From: a virus
Strand: one strand, 5' to 3'
Length of the DNA: 64,000 nt
Virus record (IMG/VR): IMGVR_UViG_3300019760_000006
Coordinates: 1 to 64,000 of that record
The position numbers and the translations under genes were made by a program. The notes beneath the pieces were generated by a model, which did not search any database, was not told the DNA's origin, and saw only the letters and a list, made by a program, of their open reading frames with translations. Below are positions 11,677 to 55,430 of the stretch, one piece after another. The first letter of the stretch is position 1, and the number at the start of each line of letters is the position of its first letter.

Positions 11677-12395
11677 ATGAAAACAACAATTACATTACAT
11701 GCGGATAGTAAAGAAGATAGAATTAAAGCTTTAGATTTTCTTGACAAGGAAGACATTACAGGGATGACATTTACATTTATCAGTAAGCGTGGTTTTGTTT
11801 GCTATTTTGATGATGGAAGGAGAGATACAAAAGAAGAAATTAGTTTTGAAATTGAGCAGCCTACTATCTACCATTGCCTTAATATCCAAGATGAAGATAC
11901 AAAGAAAATGTTGAACGAATTGATTAATAAAAAGCAACAGATTTATTTTAAAAATCACCCAAATATCCATTGGAAAAGGGGGATTTTAAAAAATGAAGAA
12001 GGAGGAGAGTAAATAAAATGAGTTATGAAAGTAGAATATATGTAGGTGTGGTTAGGAACGGAGATGATTATTTTAGTGAAATTGCAAAATTTCAGATTGG
12101 TAAAATAGATTATACAGGAGCTTTTCATAGACTTATTGGGATGTCAAAAGATGTAGATGATTTGTGTTTATATGCAGATGATGGGGATACTGAAATAACA
12201 ATAGACAAATATGGAGAGAAGTTAAAAGAACTACCTTTAGATGATGTTATAAAAGCTTTAGGAAAAGATAAAGAAAGATATAGACGAATCCCTCCTGTTA
12301 TTGAGTTTCTTAGAGTTATTAAAGTACAAAAAGAGTTTGGGGTGTGGGGGTATGAAGACGATGTTAATATAAAAGTGTTACATTTTGGTTATTAA
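11677..12395 (+). other. Two hypothetical genes (11677-12012, 12018-12395)
   Basis: ORFs preceded by the recurring AAATAAAATG start context. Confidence 0.7.
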
Positions 12396-12436
12396 TAAAT
12401 AACTGCCTAAAAACCTTATTTAAACTGTAGTAACAA

Positions 12437-12495
12437 ATAACAATAAAACACTTGATAACTCTTTATTATAGGAGTTGTTAGGTGTTTTGTTGTAT
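12437..12495 (+). terminator. Long hairpin / terminator
   Basis: ACAATAAAACACTTGATAACTCTT...AGGAGTTGTTAGGTGTTTTGTTGT stem with G-U pairs, directly after the gene block. Confidence 0.7.
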
Positions 12496-12859
12496 GTTGG
12501 TTTAAATAAAATTTAAATAAAAAAATCTTCTCAATATTAAACCATTATAAAAAGGCAAACAGTTATTGTGCGCGCTATGTATGTGTTTTCACAACTACAG
12601 GTTGTAGTTGATGAATAACAACATGTTTGTTTGCCTATATAATATAAACATTCATTATCCGAGCATATAAGTATTTGCGCACTATTATAGTTTGCTCGGA
12701 TAATATTATCTGACTTAGATAATATTATCTAAGAAAGCATTGATAAATAAAAGAAGATGAATATAAAATTTGGCCCCGACGAGGAGAGAACGTAGTGAAC
12801 GAGAATGAGGAGTGGGTTAGATCAATTTCATTATCTAAAAATTCAAACACTGTTTGAAA

Positions 12860-12875
12860 TGTTTCACGTGGAACA
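12860..12875. promoter_or_regulatory. parS: parS site (ParB-binding centromere sequence)
   Basis: TGTTTCACGTGGAACA; its reverse complement TGTTCCACGTGAAACA matches the canonical bacterial parS at 16/16; extra half-site CGTGGAACA at 12884-12892. Confidence 0.8.
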
Positions 12876-12942
12876 CGTGGGGACGTGGAACACGAATATA
12901 TGAACTATTGTTCATATTAAATTAATTTAAAATTTGTAAATG

Positions 12943-12978
12943 TTATTCACAATAACACTTGACAACAAATTATGCACA
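12943..12978 (+). promoter_or_regulatory. Two DnaA-box matches flanking a -35 hexamer
   Basis: TTATTCACA (12943-12951) and TTATGCACA (12970-12978) fit TTATNCACA; TTGACA at 12959-12964. Confidence 0.5.
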
Positions 12979-13414
12979 TGTTATTAATACACATAATCAA
13001 TTGAAACATTAACTACAATAAAGAAAGAAAAAGAAAAGGAGAATAAACAAATGGAAAAGAATGACCTTATTATCAAATACCAGTTGAAAATTGACCAGAT
13101 GGAGAGGAAAATTAAAGATACATATAAAACAGACATAGGGAGAGGTACTGCTTATTTCTTCATTAAAGAGTGGGAAGATTTTATTAAAGATTTGGAAAAG
13201 ATGGAGGATTAAGAAAACAAATGAGAACTTTTATATTAAGATCAATTCAAGTGATTTTAACACTAACGATAGGTATATCTGTAGCTTTACTGTTTAAACA
13301 TAAATTTGCAATCTTCCTGCCAGTTTTAGTTGGGAGTATTCTGTGGGTTATGTTAATCTTTGGTATAGATGAGTATATTTATTTTAACAGACAATAAGAG
13401 ATGGGAGTAAACAA

Positions 13415-14188
13415 ATGGAAATTAATTTAAATGATTATGAACTTATGAAAGGTTTGCATTGTTGTGGTTGTTATTTTTACCCTGAAGGAGGGGGGTTTTG
13501 TAAGGTAATGAACACCGGTAAGTGTAAAGCGAATGTTGATGAAGGTTATAGAAAGGTTGAGCATGACGGAGACAAACTACAGGTGTTACGTACTATCAAC
13601 TTAGGTGATCATCTTGGCTTGGTTGATGTTATTAAAGGTGGTGATTGCAAGGATTGCATGTTCGAGGCGGGCTATAGTTCGTGTGGGAGTAAAGCTATAG
13701 AGGTTATCTCTGGTTTTGATTGCGACGTAGATGATTGTTATTTCATCAAACATGTTGAACAGCCCATAGTAAGGTGGGTACAATGCACACCGGATAACAT
13801 TAAGGTAGGGGATGAGGTTATTAGCAAAATAAATCCTGACAATAAATATACAGTTTACTCTGTATTTGATAAAGGCAGACAAATGACCTTGCCCCTTGAA
13901 GTCGATGGGGAATATAGGAAGATTAGTAGACCAACAAGCATGTTCCTCAAGAAAGTGGTTGTTGATAGTGGGAATTTGCCACAACCTATAGTTGAACGCA
14001 AGATTGCATCATTTGCAGAGATGGAGGCAGGTGATAAAGGTGTGGTTATAAGCAGTAAATATCATAAACACTATATAGGGAGGCAAGTTATCAAACTACT
14101 TAATGGGTATGTAGTTGATGTTAACGTAGGCGCTTATTGGAGTAACGGCGATTCTATTGATACTATTGTGGTTGAAATAGTAAATTAA
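13415..14188 (+). CDS. Cys-rich multi-module hypothetical protein
   Basis: 257 aa; two CxxCxF...C modules followed by KOW/SH3-like segments (IKVGDEV, MEAGDKG). Confidence 0.7.
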   Translation: MEINLNDYELMKGLHCCGCYFYPEGGGFCKVMNTGKCKANVDEGYRKVEHDGDKLQVLRTINLGDHLGLVDVIKGGDCKDCMFEAGYSSCGSKAIEVISGFDCDVDDCYFIKHVEQPIVRWVQCTPDNIKVGDEVISKINPDNKYTVYSVFDKGRQMTLPLEVDGEYRKISRPTSMFLKKVVVDSGNLPQPIVERKIASFAEMEAGDKGVVISSKYHKHYIGRQVIKLLNGYVVDVNVGAYWSNGDSIDTIVVEIVN

Positions 14189-14213
14189 ATAATTAATAAA
14201 GGAGAAAATAACA

Positions 14214-14718
14214 ATGATTAAATCAATAGTGAATAGTAAGGTAGAACACAAAGAGAATCAATTTCCTAAGCTTATGCAGTGTATTGATACTCCATCATTA
14301 ATAGTTTATATGGTTAGTGAGGGGAAGGGTTATGTACTATCACCTGACAATGAAGACGATGAAGTATATCAAGATTGGGAGATCAACGATTATGAGGAAG
14401 AGTGGAGTATGTATAGATTTAAAGACTTCCATGGTAGTATCACTCTCGAACAAGATTAATTAATAGTGAAAAAGGAGTTACAAAATGAAAGCTTTAGGTT
14501 TTATTCTATGTGCATTCGGTGTATGTCTTGGATTGTATACAGGTGTATGGGTTTGTTTTATCGGTGGTATTGTTGACGTTATAGAGCAAGTTAGGGCAGA
14601 ACAGCTTGATTCGATGATCGTAGCTTGTGGAGTGGCTAAGGTTATGTTTAGTTCATTCGCTGGATGGCTGACAGCAATCGTACCATTTACATTAGGTGCT
14701 GCACTTATGCAGGATTAA
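14214..14718 (+). other. Two small genes (14214-14459; 14485-14718, two-TM membrane protein)
   Basis: AAGGAG RBSs; hydrophobic helices in the second ORF. Confidence 0.7.
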
Positions 14719-14801
14719 TTAACAACATTAAACTGAACGGATAGCATCTCAATACTCTGGGGTGTTATCCATTTTTATTTATGTTTTATTAATAAAATCA
14801 T

Positions 14802-14830
14802 TTGACATCTACAGAGAATAGGAGTAGTAT
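14802..14830 (+). promoter_or_regulatory. Sigma70-type promoter
   Basis: TTGACA-17 nt-TAGTAT, directly after a terminator hairpin near 14738-14780. Confidence 0.65.
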
Positions 14831-14876
14831 TTTCATATTGAGTTTGAGAAAAACAAATAATATAGGTGATCACAAA

Positions 14877-15135
14877 ATGCTTAAGTTCAAAACAAAAACA
14901 AAAAAAACTCACACTATCACATGTGACAGCAGCAGGTCTTGTAGGCGATACTCTCGTTACTGATCTTAAAGCAGGGGATACTTTTGAATACAATGACTAC
15001 AAAGGCGACGAACTTAAAATCAATGAAATTATCAAAGAAACGGCAAAGATGATAAAGTTCAGTGTAACTAATAACCAGAATAAAACATTCGGACTTCGAC
15101 TTAGAAAAACAACAACAATAAATTTAATTTTTTAA
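14877..15135 (+). pseudogene. Small gene apparently frameshifted in an A8 run
   Basis: AGGTGA RBS and ATG 14877 (MLKFKTKTKK) join the long 14866 frame only if the A8 at 14900-14907 loses one A. Confidence 0.45.
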
Positions 15136-15157
15136 AAGGAGAAAGGAATAAAACAAG

Positions 15158-15379
15158 ATGACTAACTTAATCATGAAAACCTTGAAAACTCTCTTCATAC
15201 TTCTCACAATCATTAGCATAGCTTCTATCCCGGTAGGTATCACATTTAACTTTAGTGCTGGTGTTATCCCTCTTGCACTTCTTGGTATGTTTCTATTCGG
15301 TTTTGCAGCTAACACCTGCTCCGAGATCGTTAGTGAACGGGAACTAAGAGAAGCGCTGGCAAGAGTAAAGAAGTTCTAA
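15158..15379 (+). CDS. Small two-TM membrane protein
   Basis: Two hydrophobic segments; RBS upstream. Confidence 0.7.
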   Translation: MTNLIMKTLKTLFILLTIISIASIPVGITFNFSAGVIPLALLGMFLFGFAANTCSEIVSERELREALARVKKF

Positions 15380-15420
15380 TAAAGACTGCTTGACTGAAGT
15401 CGCACATAATATCATCTAAC

Positions 15421-15465
15421 AAGCACCTACTGGTTATTAATTTAATTGGTAGGTGTTTTCTTTTA
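15421..15465 (+). terminator. Rho-independent terminator ending the early arm
   Basis: AAGCACCTACTGGTTA...TAATTGGTAGGTGTTT stem followed by TCTTTT. Confidence 0.8.
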
Positions 15466-15554
15466 TCTATTAGAATGAATGACATTCAATTATAAAATGA
15501 ATCACATTTATTATCACACAATTAATACAAAAATAAAACTAAAAAAGATTTTCA

Positions 15555-15583
15555 TTGACAAAAAATGTAGGATATTTTATAAT
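15555..15583 (+). promoter_or_regulatory. Consensus sigma70 promoter facing a non-coding region
   Basis: TTGACA-17 nt-TATAAT. Confidence 0.8.
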
Positions 15584-16078
15584 CAAACAGGGAGATATTT
15601 AGGGGGAGATGGTGCGGGTTAGACCGATCACTATGTTAAGTACCTATTAAATATTCTGCGAGGTTCTCTCTATTATACCTCACTTGATATTTGTAATCAC
15701 AAATACAACACACACATAAAGAAAATAGTGATAATAATATATTATTATAATTTTATAATAGTTTTATTTAAAAGAAGTTTTTTCTTTTACTTTCTTTTTA
15801 TTAAAAGAAACTCTTTTTAAAGATACTCTTACTTTTTAAAAGTAAGACAAACCTTGATATTTATATTATAGATAACCCATAAAAACACTTATATATCTAT
15901 GTATATATATATATAATTTTAATGTTTATTTACTATAGAAACATAAAAAGGTAACCTCGGAAACCCTTGTCAATAAAGGATCTCCAAGGTTGTGTTTTTA
16001 GTTTCTTAAAAACGCCTGTAAGTTTTGTAGATACTCTACAATTTTTTCATAGATTAAGAATCTATGAAAGCTAAACAA

Positions 16079-37446: not shown

Positions 37447-39752
37447 TAATCATCTCCTCAACCTGTTCTCTTAGATCTGACATCATAACCTTACCTTCGC
37501 TTGTATTTGAAAATAATTGTTCATCTATTACCATATCTGTAGAAATATTGTTACCACAATGCCAACATAAACCTTTTATTGGCTTGCAGTCCTCTAAAAA
37601 ATCATCACATACGTCTTCAATATCTCTATGTTCTGTTTCAACTTCACATTCAAACAATGCACTCGCATAAATAGGTAGCCAAATTTTAATTTTCTTTTTC
37701 ATTATTTAACCATCAGTCGTTAGACTGAACCTCTCTAAACTTAAATACAGCAGATTTAATAGAATCTTCTGCAAGAACAAGATACTCACCATTTTCAAGT
37801 TCTTGGTAAAAGCTAACTACATCTCCTATGAGAATATCTCTTGAGTAATACTTTGCACATTCTTCAACAGAATCAAAATTTATTTCACATGTTGTATACT
37901 TTTCACCAAATATAGTAATATCAGCTATAATTTTCATTATTTATTTTCTCTCCATTACTCACTTAATCTTTTCAAAACATTTAGGTTCATCTGAATAAAT
38001 ACATATTGGTGTAGAACTTTCTGAGATGCCTTCAGAATCATTCCACCACAATTCAGCATCATGCTCAACTTCTGGTGTTAATGCCCTGTCACATTCATCA
38101 CCAAACTTACATTCTTTATAAAATGTACAAAATGTTTTATCTTTATAACAAATCATATATAGGGTCCTTTTCAATTTTAAGTTTTTATTCAATAAACAAT
38201 TTATACGTTGATTATATTTATATAATACAAAACACCATTTGTCAAGCTATTTATTCATCACAACACCAATCTTCATTATCTGCCAAGTCAATATCAATAT
38301 ATTGATTCATTTTTTCTTCAGCCTCTTCTCTGATTTTAAATTTAACACATTCATTATTAAAACCTTGAAAACAAACATCCTCCCACTTACCTTGTATTTC
38401 TTCTTTTGTGTACATAAATGTTATAAATGGAAAATATTTCTTAGGTCTTCTCCACATTTGAATTTTCCAAAAACCACCCTTATTGACACACAACCTATAA
38501 TTATTCATTTTAATCTCCTTTATAAATTAGTTTTTATTTTTATCTATAATCTTCATAGTTTCTTCGTCAACATCAAAATCTCTCAAGAATTGGCTCTCTG
38601 TGTAAGCTACAGGATCAATTCTTGATAACTTATACCAAACAACCCTATCACATTCATTACAAACAAACCTTGTAAAAGCTGGAGTCTTATCTGGAACTCC
38701 AACAGATATAAAAGCATCACAATCATCATATGGACGTTCGCCAAAATTCATTTTATTTATTCTCCTCTTTTTGAACACCATACCAAATCTCTTTAAACTT
38801 ATCACTATCAATCTTATCAAGAGTGTCAGCAAGCTTATAAACCATATCAACCAACTCATCTCTTTCTTTGATAATATTATTAGCTATATACTTATTAGTA
38901 CAACAAATAGATTCATCATTTGCACTTGCGATATTGACATCTAAACCATTTGTGTGCCTTCCAAAAACAAACCACCTTGGGAATCTCTCTTCTACATATC
39001 TCTCTATCATTTTATTTATTCTCCTTTATTTGAATCACAAACCCAACTGTCATTTTGTGAAAGTTCAATATCAGTATAATGATTCATTTGTCCTTCAGCT
39101 TCCATTCTTGTTCTAAATTTAACACAAGACAAAAACATAACTACACCTTTTTATTTAAAAATTTTAAATATCAAATAGATTGAATCAATACACAATAACT
39201 ACTAAATCAATCCCTTACAAAATAATATTTACCAGTCCAAGACTCTTCCTTACACCACTCCTCTGCTTCTTTAATATTATCAAAATCTTTAAATATAATA
39301 TCTGTTACACAGTGATAATCATTATCAACTTCTACTATCTCAATTTTCATTTTATTTTCCTTTTAAATATTTACAATGAGATAATTCAACCCTTATATTA
39401 CACAACTCTTCTGTAAGGGCTTTTTGTTTATCAAACATACTATTGACAAACCAATAACAATAGCTAAGCCAACAACATAATACAATTATCACTGCAATTA
39501 GCCAACAACATGATAGTTTATAAAAATTTTTATCCATACTACACCTTTTTATCTAAAAACATTAACATTGTAAGCATTAATAGAGCAAGTAGCGCAATAA
39601 CAGTTACAACCAACAATAGTCCACCCGTTATCTATGATATCAATTTCATACGCTTCTGGTATGTCGTAAGTGCCCCAATTCTTTTCCATAGGTATTTCCA
39701 TATATTTACCACAACCACTACATCTTATCTTCATTACGCATGTAAAATTCAT
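37439..39752 (-). other. Run of small hypothetical genes (37439-37702, 37713-37937, 37959-38192, 38251-38508, 38527-38751, 38753-39010, 39352-39537, 39549-39752)
   Basis: Packed ORFs with GGAG RBSs; several are Cys-rich; - strand TTGACA near 38240 and 39818. Confidence 0.65.
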
Positions 39753-40133: not shown

Positions 40134-40162
40134 TTGACAGGCAATAAATTTCAAGGTATAAT
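40134..40162 (+). promoter_or_regulatory. Consensus sigma70 promoter for the rightward arm
   Basis: TTGACA-17 nt-TATAAT, overlapped by an imperfect inverted repeat (TGCCTGT...ACAGGCA). Confidence 0.85.
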
Positions 40163-40210
40163 ACTACCTATTAAACAAACAAATTATGAAACTATAAATA
40201 TATTAGCTAT

Positions 40211-40495
40211 AAATTATATGCCTTTGGCATTAAGTTTATCTTATAAATTTTATTCTTTTAATTGTTATTATTAATAAAAAACAAAAGAATAAATTATATA
40301 TAAATAATTTTATCTCTTTATTTTCTTTTATTAATAAAAACTTAAAGAGATAAATAATGTTACTTATATATTATATGTCCGTAGGACATAAATATTGTGT
40401 TAAAGATTTTATTCCTTTGTTATTTATTATTAATATTAAATAAAGGAATAAATATATAAGTAACAAATTATATGTACGTAGTACATAAATTATAT
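40211..40495. repeat. Array of covarying hairpins
   Basis: Three TTTAT(TCT/CTC/TCC)TTT...AAA(AGA/GAG/GGA)ATAAA stems and three triloop hairpins. Confidence 0.75.
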
Positions 40496-53472: not shown

Positions 53473-53745
53473 ATGGCAGACACAAGACCTGATGTAATTT
53501 TGAATGGTGAAGAGTACCAAGATCTTTATGCAGCTACAGGCATTACTGTTGGTACTAAATTAATTCTTTTTAACAAATCTACATCTGATGTGAGTGTAAT
53601 ACTATCAGCAACAAAACCACTTAATAATGATACAAAAGGTATAAGAATTGAGATTAAAGGTTCTATACGTGCTTTCACTGTTGATAGTGGAGAGAGTGGT
53701 TGTTGGGCTAAAGGATGGGGACCATTATCAGTGCAGGAAGCTTAA
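53473..53745 (+). CDS. Small virion-associated beta protein
   Basis: 90 aa, DLYAATGITVG...NK...CWAKG; heads the fibre-like gene block. Confidence 0.55.
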   Translation: MADTRPDVILNGEEYQDLYAATGITVGTKLILFNKSTSDVSVILSATKPLNNDTKGIRIEIKGSIRAFTVDSGESGCWAKGWGPLSVQEA

Positions 53746-53783
53746 TATGAACTTAAATTATAATAATACAGGAGGTTCATATT

Positions 53784-55430
53784 ATGGCTATTAGACCTTA
53801 TTTTGGAGGTGGTACCGGTGGTGGTTTTGCTTTAGGCCATTTAGACAATCTTTTTGGGGCTACAAGTGGTGATGCAACAGCCTCTCCTTCGATAGTCCTT
53901 CCTGCTGCAAATAAAGCTGCTGCTATAGCTGTTAGAGATGCTTACTCATCTGCAAATCCTTCTTGGCTTGCTGAATATGATGCTGATAGTAATCTTAATA
54001 TTAGATTAATATATTTAGATGGTGGGAATACTATTGTTGTACATCAGATTAGACAAGGAGGTAGTTGGGTTGATAACGGAAGTGTAACTGCTGTTGAAGG
54101 GCTACCAGGAAGTGGTACTGACTTCTCTCATGTTTCTGATAATCATATTCCTGCTATTGGTGTTGGTCCTGACAAACTTCCATATGATAGTGGTATTGAT
54201 CACGATCCAGTAACAGGTAATCTTAGAACACCGGCTTCATTAACTGTTGGAAGTAATTCACTATCATTTGATGATGCTCAGACAATAAGCAGTGGTATTG
54301 AGAATGTCTTCTTTAAACTTGATTTTCAAGATGAAGTTTATTCCCCTGCATGGCAGCAAGCAAATTTAGATGCTTCTGGCAGAGTTAGAAATAGGAAGTG
54401 GATTGGTGATATTAAATCAGATTTTGTTAAACAGCCGATAGATACTGAAACACTGTCTGACCCTGTAACATTTAATTACACTGCATCTGATAATATCAGA
54501 ATAGCTGATTTTCAGTTGAAACTTGAAGATGCAGCTACAGATTTGACAATATCAATTACAACAACATCTGATGAGAAGGTTTGGAAATACAATTTTGGAG
54601 TTGCATCTCCTGGGTTAAATAAATTTAATATTATTAATAAAACATCACCTGTAGATGTAAGAATTGGTGATGAGTATAAGATAACAATAAGTGGTGGTCG
54701 AGTTAAAGGAAGTGCTTCAAACATTCCTTGGTTTACCGAAACCTATCGTGCCTGGAAAGATGTTGATTTAGCAAGAATGGAAGATTTAGGTGGAGATCAT
54801 ACAAAGATTAAAACTTTTATAATGAGAGATCAGCCAACAAAGGTTGCTGCCGGTACACTTCTAACAGGTAATAGAACATTTGATTTTAGTTTAGAAATGC
54901 ATGAAGGTGTCGTAGGTAATGGTACGCTAAGACAGAATGGTGGAATATTAAAAGCTGACATTTCTCCAGCTGGTTATTTTTTTAACCAAAGCTTATCCCC
55001 TATTACATTAAATTCTGGTGAATCTTCAACCTGGACTCTTGAGTTTACCCTTACAACTGGTGGTATTATAAGTAAATCATTTACAGTATCTGCTGTTGAC
55101 GCAGAGGAGTTAATGTATTGGGATGTACAAACATCTCATGATGCAAATGCATTTAATTATGTTAGCATAACCTCAAGACATGCAGAAATAAATACAGCAA
55201 TAAAGATAAATATTCAGACATACACAGGCAGCAAATACTTTGCTATTGCACAACCAACATCTGAAGCAGATATAACAAAACTCGTTATAGGCGGTATAAA
55301 TCAGATTGGGGCATTCACTAAAAACACATCTGCTATTACAATTAATACAATATCATATGATGTGTGGATTAGTAATAATCTTTTACTTGGAAGTGTTGTA
55401 TCTGGAGAGACAGTGGAGGTTATAAGATGA
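53784..55430 (+). CDS. Fibre/appendage-like structural protein
   Basis: 548 aa; Gly-rich N-terminus, beta-sandwich-like domains; in the structural operon. Confidence 0.6.
   Translation: MAIRPYFGGGTGGGFALGHLDNLFGATSGDATASPSIVLPAANKAAAIAVRDAYSSANPSWLAEYDADSNLNIRLIYLDGGNTIVVHQIRQGGSWVDNGSVTAVEGLPGSGTDFSHVSDNHIPAIGVGPDKLPYDSGIDHDPVTGNLRTPASLTVGSNSLSFDDAQTISSGIENVFFKLDFQDEVYSPAWQQANLDASGRVRNRKWIGDIKSDFVKQPIDTETLSDPVTFNYTASDNIRIADFQLKLEDAATDLTISITTTSDEKVWKYNFGVASPGLNKFNIINKTSPVDVRIGDEYKITISGGRVKGSASNIPWFTETYRAWKDVDLARMEDLGGDHTKIKTFIMRDQPTKVAAGTLLTGNRTFDFSLEMHEGVVGNGTLRQNGGILKADISPAGYFFNQSLSPITLNSGESSTWTLEFTLTTGGIISKSFTVSAVDAEELMYWDVQTSHDANAFNYVSITSRHAEINTAIKINIQTYTGSKYFAIAQPTSEADITKLVIGGINQIGAFTKNTSAITINTISYDVWISNNLLLGSVVSGETVEVIR

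Follow-up and report, generated by a model that had tools for sequence, protein, structure and literature searches.

The 655-bp gene-free gap at 12396-13050 of this phage genome is best read, we hold with moderate confidence, as an early-operon control region with phi29-style coupling to host DNA-binding proteins and operators for a putative regulator. The gap would divide two early operons of a lytic-type phage and would consist of two modules. The left module (12440-12733) would begin with a strong RNA terminator that ends the upstream operon, followed by palindromes that are found only here in the record and that overlap or follow two candidate promoters. Those palindromes built from the motif ATTATCYRA would most likely be operators for one dimeric DNA-binding protein, probably phage-encoded, and the hairpin at 12654-12704 might in addition serve as a stem at the 5' end of an RNA. 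The right module (12842-12987) would be the upstream region of an early promoter, P12959, gathering sites that match host proteins. Host ParB would load on phage DNA at a parS site, by the phi29 mechanism, and host regulators would modulate this one early promoter, which would couple the first genes, and what becomes of the phage DNA, to the state of the host cell. Direct observations comprise the sequences with their statistics, the difference in folding of the terminator between the strands, the membership of P12959 in a promoter family and the absence of phage par genes; we infer every binding event, and its consequence, from sequence.

If host ParB does load here, an unrelated large uncultured phage would join the few lytic phages that borrow a chromosome-segregation protein from their host, phi29 being the documented case of such use, and parS would be physically linked to one early promoter together with sites for other host regulators. 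A DNA piece of ~500 bp would then allow one to ask what ParB does on phage DNA (positioning, SMC loading, silencing or dormancy), and the ATTATCYRA operators hint at a further regulator. Otherwise, this is an ordinary though crowded phage control region.

The phage and its gene-free gap

The window (the whole stretch of DNA that was analysed, 64,000 nucleotides) is the first 64 kb of the 92,760-bp IMG/VR record IMGVR_UViG_3300019760_000006, whose source is microbial-mat metagenomes. Positions are those of the window unless given as positions of the record. The record has 32% G+C, strong Shine-Dalgarno sites and sigma-70-type promoters, and the host is probably Gram-positive-like. A family A DNA polymerase gene is split across the record ends, with its C-terminal DNA_pol_A part at bases 1-672 and its N-terminal part at record 90926-92758; an HNH endonuclease gene lies immediately upstream of it, and at the break the polymerase domain lacks ~200 profile positions. 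Finding both ends in one polymerase gene suggests that the map is essentially circular and nearly complete, for which reason the 71% completeness estimate for the record is probably too low.

Genes are present for a T7-type primase-helicase, ribonucleotide reductase, terminase, portal and capsid. The genome is at least 93 kb long and has a T7-type replisome and a Vequintavirinae-like terminase. Profile searches of the 92.8-kb record, which lacks part of polA, found no integrase, HTH_3, S24 peptidase, ParB_N, AAA_31, CbiA-type ParA or StbA/ParM-type gene, and from its gene content the phage looks lytic. Among genome contigs, the ribonucleotide reductase has a single match, to an RNR of a Bacteroidota MAG at 24% identity, and this says nothing about the host.

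No relatives of the phage were found by any search route (cultured phages, viral contigs, protein and metagenome searches). Cultured phages gave no blastn match, and comparing the flanking proteins and TerL with viral contigs gave nothing closer than a 30% TerL. A search of 5.8 billion proteins with the neighbouring proteins returned these proteins themselves and one 38% homologue, which the metagenome scan placed on one G+C-rich contig, where it is directly followed by genes with no gap. Pattern scans with the hairpin arms gave no matches, the double GATAATATTATC pattern was found in 10 viral contigs, and the pattern of parS plus a half-site was found only in the unrelated contig IMGVR_UViG_3300047564_006836. 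Mat-sample contigs from four runs contain no variant within the gap, at a cover of ~5x and with parts of the gap without cover being uninformative.

Two + strand ORFs, 12018-12395 and 13051-13212, flank the gap, which contains only micro-ORFs of 20-41 aa. The original prediction drew attention to a cluster of operator-like palindromes in a gene-free stretch of ~370 bp. Every palindrome it quoted is present where it was placed, in a gap that is 655 bp long rather than ~370 bp. It overlooked a 24-bp RNA hairpin (12440-12493), a direct repeat of a parS half-site (12883-12894) and the promoters. The features are as follows, with the strand given where one applies:

12440-12493, + strand: predicted intrinsic terminator hairpin with a 24-bp stem, closing the upstream operon (ORF 12018-12395)
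12548-12641: long imperfect fold-back with outer 9-bp arms and an apical palindrome (z -3.0)
12615-12652, + strand: candidate promoter P12615, ATAACA-17-TATAAT, 10/12 consensus positions
12654-12704: inverted repeat with perfect 12-nt arms (12654-12665 and 12693-12704) and a 27-nt spacer
12696-12733: O1 and O2, abutting operator-like palindromes with centres 19 bp apart and zero spacers
12740-12769, + strand: candidate promoter P12740, TTGATA-18-TAAAAT, 10/12 consensus positions
12795-12857, + strand: possible 20-codon micro-ORF, an open frame with GGAG-N8-GTG spacing in a purine-rich, G+C-rich island
12830-12838, + strand: sixth, isolated half-site, ATTATCTAA
12842-12858: 8-1-8 palindrome TTCAAACA-C-TGTTTGAA, abutting parS
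12860-12875: exact chromosomal-type parS, matching TGTTNCACGTGAAACA at 16/16 positions on the - strand
12883-12894, + strand: second copy, in direct orientation, of the parS half ACGTGGAACACG, 17 bp on from the first
12898-12917: 8-4-8 palindrome ATATGAAC-TATT-GTTCATAT with a GAAC-N4-GTTC core, at -96 to -77 of P12959
12935-12978, + strand: two overlapping TGTNA-N7-TNACA sites and two consensus DnaA boxes (consensus from a hand-chosen panel)
12959-13050, + strand: predicted early promoter P12959, TTGACA-17-TATTAA, and its leader, which reaches the ATG at 13051

The clustering of palindromes is real. Six maximal perfect inverted repeats (arm of at least 8, loop of at most 30) fall within 12550-12920, compared with 0.29 expected from first-order Markov shuffles that keep dinucleotide transitions, and 0/2000 shuffles reach six. 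This density is 20 times the expectation, and the record mean is 0.51 inverted repeats per 370-bp window. Only one place in the record is denser, at 15.6-16.1 kb, where there are eight.

Palindromes, promoters and candidate host-protein sites

The hairpin at 12440-12493 folds with -30.5 kcal/mol (z -9.1) on the + strand, compared with -11.4 kcal/mol (z -3.1) on the - strand. All four of its arm mismatches become G.U pairs on the + strand, its 3' side is U-rich (UUUUGUUGU), and it was picked up by a terminator scan. These features mark it as an RNA terminator that acts on one strand and ends the upstream operon. Two terminators, at 12458-12495 and 15429-15466, are 74% alike over 38 nt; they are 2,971 bp apart and close the operons that flank the block at 13.0-15.4 kb.

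The stretch that follows behaves differently: 12540-12745 folds about equally on either strand (z -5.3 and -4.1), which indicates symmetry at the level of DNA. Because of this either-strand folding and the 0-1 nt spacers of several palindromes, double-stranded protein sites fit the palindromes (the terminator apart) better than RNA does. The fold-back at 12548-12641 has outer arms AGGCAAACA (12553-12561) and TGTTTGCCT (12628-12636) around an apical 8-3-8 palindrome, CAACTACA-GGT-TGTAGTTG (12592-12610). With the terminator on its left and the candidate start near 12650 on its right, it is probably not transcribed. P12615 sits in its descending arm, and 12638-12652 repeats the -10 of the early promoters 5205 and 7746 together with the ATAAACATT that follows it. 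The P12615 element agrees with the early promoter family only in its -10 and initial transcribed sequence, and we treat it as a candidate promoter.

Each arm of the inverted repeat at 12654-12704 includes ATTATCCGA, and the repeat folds with -17.6 kcal/mol (z -3.9). A transcript from P12615 would begin with it as a 5' hairpin (+4 to +54), or else it would be two distant half-sites. O1 (12696-12713) is symmetric at 16/18 positions and O2 (12714-12733) is a perfect 20-mer; GATAATATTATC occurs at 12699 and 12718, the second copy within this 20-mer. The 12654-12704 repeat, O1 and O2 are all composed of the 9-mer half-site ATTATCYRA. The record contains 16 copies of this 9-mer (9 expected record-wide), six of them within 185 bp, for which clustering the Poisson probability is ~1e-13. 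The statement in the original prediction that all palindromes differ, such that one phage repressor could not account for them, is therefore wrong for these three. The O1/O2 palindromes are unique in the record, and a look-alike at 38862-38880 was dismissed as coding sequence. No candidate regulator for the operators was found: HTH_3 is absent from the record, and the first gene after P12959 encodes a plain helical hairpin.

P12740, which follows O2, is a weak candidate promoter by consensus match. It has a leader, GGGTTAGAYCRAT, in common with a promoter at 15555, which we attribute to chance because local alignment does no better than with shuffles. The promoter at 15555 is a perfect TTGACA-17-TATAAT and is followed only by a 13-codon ORF. 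Elsewhere, 40134-40495 and record 78039-78340 hold promoter-driven arrays of short hairpins that have modules in common with each other and none with the studied cluster; these arrays (40.1-40.5 and 78.0-78.4 kb) were considered as kin of the cluster and set aside as a different element family.

P12959 belongs to a family of early promoters (731, 5205, 7746, 9033 and 12959) defined by an upstream AATAAY element, TTGACA with a 17-bp spacer, a -10 resembling TATAAC and a conserved leader, ATAAACATTG / TTGAAACA. It agrees with the family in all four parts, its leader being ATAATCA..TTGAAACA, and its prediction as an early promoter is secure. The first gene after it encodes 53 aa and has no Pfam or ESM Atlas match. 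A ribbon-helix-helix repressor was considered for this protein and rejected, as its AlphaFold model (pLDDT 83) shows a hairpin of two helices and lacks any strand.

The parS at 12860-12875 is the sole copy in the 92.8-kb record, where composition alone predicts 1.3e-4, and no further parS exists in the record even at 2 mismatches. Because the record (lacking part of polA) has no ParB_N, any ParB acting at this parS would presumably be the host's. Two parS-like sites 17 bp apart also occur in the contig IMGVR_UViG_3300047564_006836 (4690-4730), in an intergenic position before a promoter-like stretch, and in >117 viral contigs, parS is followed by a second full or half site within 20 bp. The palindrome that abuts parS, at 12842-12858, is weak as RNA (-4.3 kcal/mol, z -2.2) and has no match in our hand-chosen motif panel.

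The palindrome at 12898-12917 has a z of -5.1 as RNA, and its GAAC-N4-GTTC core is one of only two in the record. The LexA likeness that had been proposed for it holds for this core, not for the flanks, which are T and A and give 2 mismatches to the 14-mer CGAAC-N4-GTTCG; at -96 to -77, the site would be too far upstream to occlude P12959. Its arms, ATATGAAC and GTTCATAT, have only four occurrences in the record, and they make a second inverted repeat at 53745-53782 with a 22-nt spacer, which encloses the ribosome-binding site of a gene starting at 53784. Closer to P12959 are the TGTNA-N7-TNACA sites, at 12935 and 12941, and the DnaA boxes, at 12943-12951 and 12970-12978, which flank the -35 hexamer. 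Two of the record's 21 DnaA-type sites fall in the gap, where 0.15 are expected. Part of the overlap between the DnaA and TnrA-type sites arises because the upstream AATAAY element common to the promoter family lies there.

These matches come from a panel of 17 regulator consensus sequences, applied after the region had been seen; 15 were used in a record-wide ranking. The motifs were chosen by hand rather than taken from a curated collection, and we treat the matches as leads. The panel's exact matches in the gap are parS, the two DnaA boxes, one GAAC-N4-GTTC core (LexA) and the two overlapping TGTNA-N7-TNACA sites (TnrA-type), and all fall between -134 and -16 of P12959. In the record-wide ranking with this panel, four motif types were reached only by windows overlapping the gap, a count to be read with the caveat that palindrome-rich DNA favours palindromic motifs.

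The idea that the cluster displays sites for several host proteins therefore survives in part. An exact parS in a record with no phage ParB (part of polA missing) and four consensus types of the hand-chosen panel found only in the 120 bp before P12959 speak for it, but half of the palindromes match none. The proposed likenesses to CopY/BlaI and Fur sites fail on spacing: TACA-N3-TGTA (TACA-GGT-TGTA) is present where CopY/BlaI needs TACA-N2-TGTA, off by one, and a 6-0-6 palindrome with no central base (GATAAT|ATTATC) is present where Fur needs the 7-1-7 TGATAAT-N-ATTATCA. The gap contains no exact match to the CopY/BlaI or the Fur/PerR/Zur motif, and no Fur match even within 2 mismatches.

Alternative explanations

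Contig depth in the mat samples raises the possibility that this is a DNA-handling site rather than a transcription switch, i.e., a terminal-repeat boundary, a packaging or processing signal or a replication origin, with the 12.7-15.4 kb block occurring twice per virion DNA. A depth step over 12674-15341, a block of small early genes, is seen in three of four mat samples, at ~1.7x (X2), 1.1-1.7x (X3) and 1.9x (X5) relative to the flanks. The block's proteins are found on 4-5 contigs, compared with 2-3 for the flank proteins, and a 97% variant of ORF 15158-15379 exists on a 3,110-bp contig. The record's two most palindrome-rich stretches bracket the block, and TerL is 43% identical to terminases of the Vequintavirinae type, a group of phages with fixed ends and 459-514-bp direct repeats in non-coding DNA (PMC7471380, PMC9862379). 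Six iteron-like 9-mers, AT-rich stretches and the T7-type replisome would suit an origin. However, the depths derive from low-coverage contigs (~5x) rather than reads, and X6 has no step. The block could be a collapsed repeat with its left edge inside the cluster, or it could be a module shared among strains and recombining in two palindrome-rich gaps. A strain-shared module accounts at least as well for the depth and the contig counts, for the 97% variant and for the breaks at both edges, and we favour it because of those contig breaks and the existing variant. In the Vequintavirus Gotham, the repeat lies at a convergent junction, within a non-coding stretch of ~2.4 kb, and the corresponding place here is 15.4-16.1 kb, not this gap. 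No initiator gene was recognised among the neighbours, and the turning points of cumulative GC skew are at 16 and 40 kb rather than at 12.5 kb. We consider a DNA-handling site unlikely, if worth keeping in view. The most palindrome-rich stretch of the record, 15380-16078, is itself at a convergent junction and, by analogy with Gotham, is a candidate place for the genome ends.

Structured RNA offers a different account of the same hairpins, most of which would act in transcripts starting at ~12650 and ~12775 as 5' stabilisers, as an attenuator with alternative hairpins or as a small RNA. The stretch 12646-12960 folds with z -3.9, and the hairpins at 12654-12704, 12699-12729 and 12714-12733 overlap and are mutually exclusive. 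From Gram-positive bacteria, a stem placed at +4 is known as a layout that stabilises transcripts, and 12654-12704 would match it. Against this, 12540-12745 is about as stable on the opposite strand and has no G.U asymmetry, unlike the true terminator, and spacers of 0-1 nt in several palindromes make poor RNA hairpins. Taken alone, 12770-12935 is not unusually stable (z -0.9). No Rfam family matches at gathering scores (at E<=10, only chance matches of microRNA type appear), and the promoters that would be needed, P12615 and P12740, are only candidates. We therefore judge RNA function for most of these hairpins to be quite improbable. Still less credible, and hardly to be believed, is that the cluster is mostly accidental, a piece of AT-rich non-coding DNA in which promoter fragments were left over or duplicated and only the terminator and P12959 work. 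Low-complexity AT-rich DNA does breed short palindromes, for example at 15.7-15.9 kb, and 12638-12652 resembles a decayed copy of a family promoter. But shuffles keeping dinucleotide transitions never attain the observed palindrome count, the palindromes here are not simple AT runs, and chance accounts poorly for both parS (1.3e-4 expected) and the ATTATCYRA clustering (~1e-13).

In the model of the original prediction itself, several host proteins would find a landing pad or decoy array here, which would anchor or pause entering DNA in the manner of phage T5, shield it or titrate regulators. The exact parS and the exact consensus matches for three more host-regulator types of the hand-chosen panel are concentrated here, which speaks for it. 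The T5 injection-stop signal (iss) is likewise non-coding and palindrome-rich, with host DnaA boxes (10.1101/866236), and, counted in the same way, 1 kb of it holds 5 inverted repeats. With a Vequintavirinae-like TerL the genome probably has fixed ends, in which case the DNA could enter in a fixed order. However, half of the palindromes match no host consensus, three have one half-site in common, and one or two sites per regulator are too few for titrating abundant proteins. We give the landing pad a slim chance. A more specific version is very unlikely, in which the gap would be a docking hub for host chromosome proteins (ParB, DnaA, LexA-like and TnrA-like) gathered within ~130 bp upstream of one early promoter and bordering a 3-kb virion terminal repeat, where host proteins would capture or position the first-entering DNA and gate the first genes, as a Gram-positive-style counterpart of the T5 injection stop.

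Comparison with known systems

In T5, the iss occupies 1.0-1.7 kb of untranslated DNA within the left terminal repeat and contains eight DnaA boxes paired 3 bp apart, direct-repeat arrays and a 131-bp inverted repeat whose partner is ~3 kb away, and it acts together with A1 and A2 (10.1101/866236; NC_005859 annotation). Our gap is like it in being large and untranslated, in its place among small early genes, in its many palindromes and inverted repeats and in having consensus DnaA boxes. Other T5 sequence features that were looked for are missing. A tblastn search of the record found no homologues of T5 dmp, A1 or A2 (best E 2.0), the two DnaA boxes are 18 bp apart on the same strand rather than eight in close pairs, and there are no direct repeats of the DRE/DRD type or in arrays. 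A long inverted repeat with a distant partner was sought in 12.3-16.2 kb and by a record-wide search for short matches, and none was found. Every sequence-level feature of the analogy that could be checked thus fails except palindrome richness. On sequence criteria, we reject membership of the gap in the T5-type injection-stop signals and see no sign of a stop to DNA injection.

O1 and O2 invite a second comparison. Phage repressors of the lambda type bind adjacent palindromic operators, OR and OL. The arrangement here is similar in having two abutting zero-spacer palindromes of 18-20 bp built from one half-site, with promoters adjacent and extra half-sites near. It differs in that an HTH_3 profile search of the record found no repressor/HTH gene, in that O1/O2 are upstream of one candidate promoter and downstream of the other and overlap no proven promoter, and in that the motif occurs at this single locus only.

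Phages also use sites for the host regulators LexA and CtrA, the latter in a "lytic deferment" model (PMC9437464). As in those cases, consensus sites for host regulators are clustered here at a phage promoter of a few small genes with no assigned function. In the LexA and CtrA studies, the sites recur across relatives and binding has been shown, whereas here there is a single genome with single predicted sites.

The closest comparison is with phi29 and Nf, virulent Bacillus phages that carry parS sites for host Spo0J/ParB plus Spo0A boxes (PMC2731898). Two differences from phi29, whose system traps phage DNA in the spores of a spore-forming host, count against our explanation: phi29 has five parS sites where this phage has one and a half-site, and Spo0A boxes (TGTCGAA) lie at the early promoters of phi29 while 12396-13050 has none (the whole record has four). 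The phage studied here is also unrelated to phi29, being at least 93 kb with a T7-type replisome and a Vequintavirinae-like terminase, and its sites are predicted ones. The arrangement is otherwise that of phi29 in a different setting: this is a lytic-type phage with no ParB of its own, the host parS consensus lies in non-coding DNA beside early promoters, and candidate sites for other host regulators accompany it.
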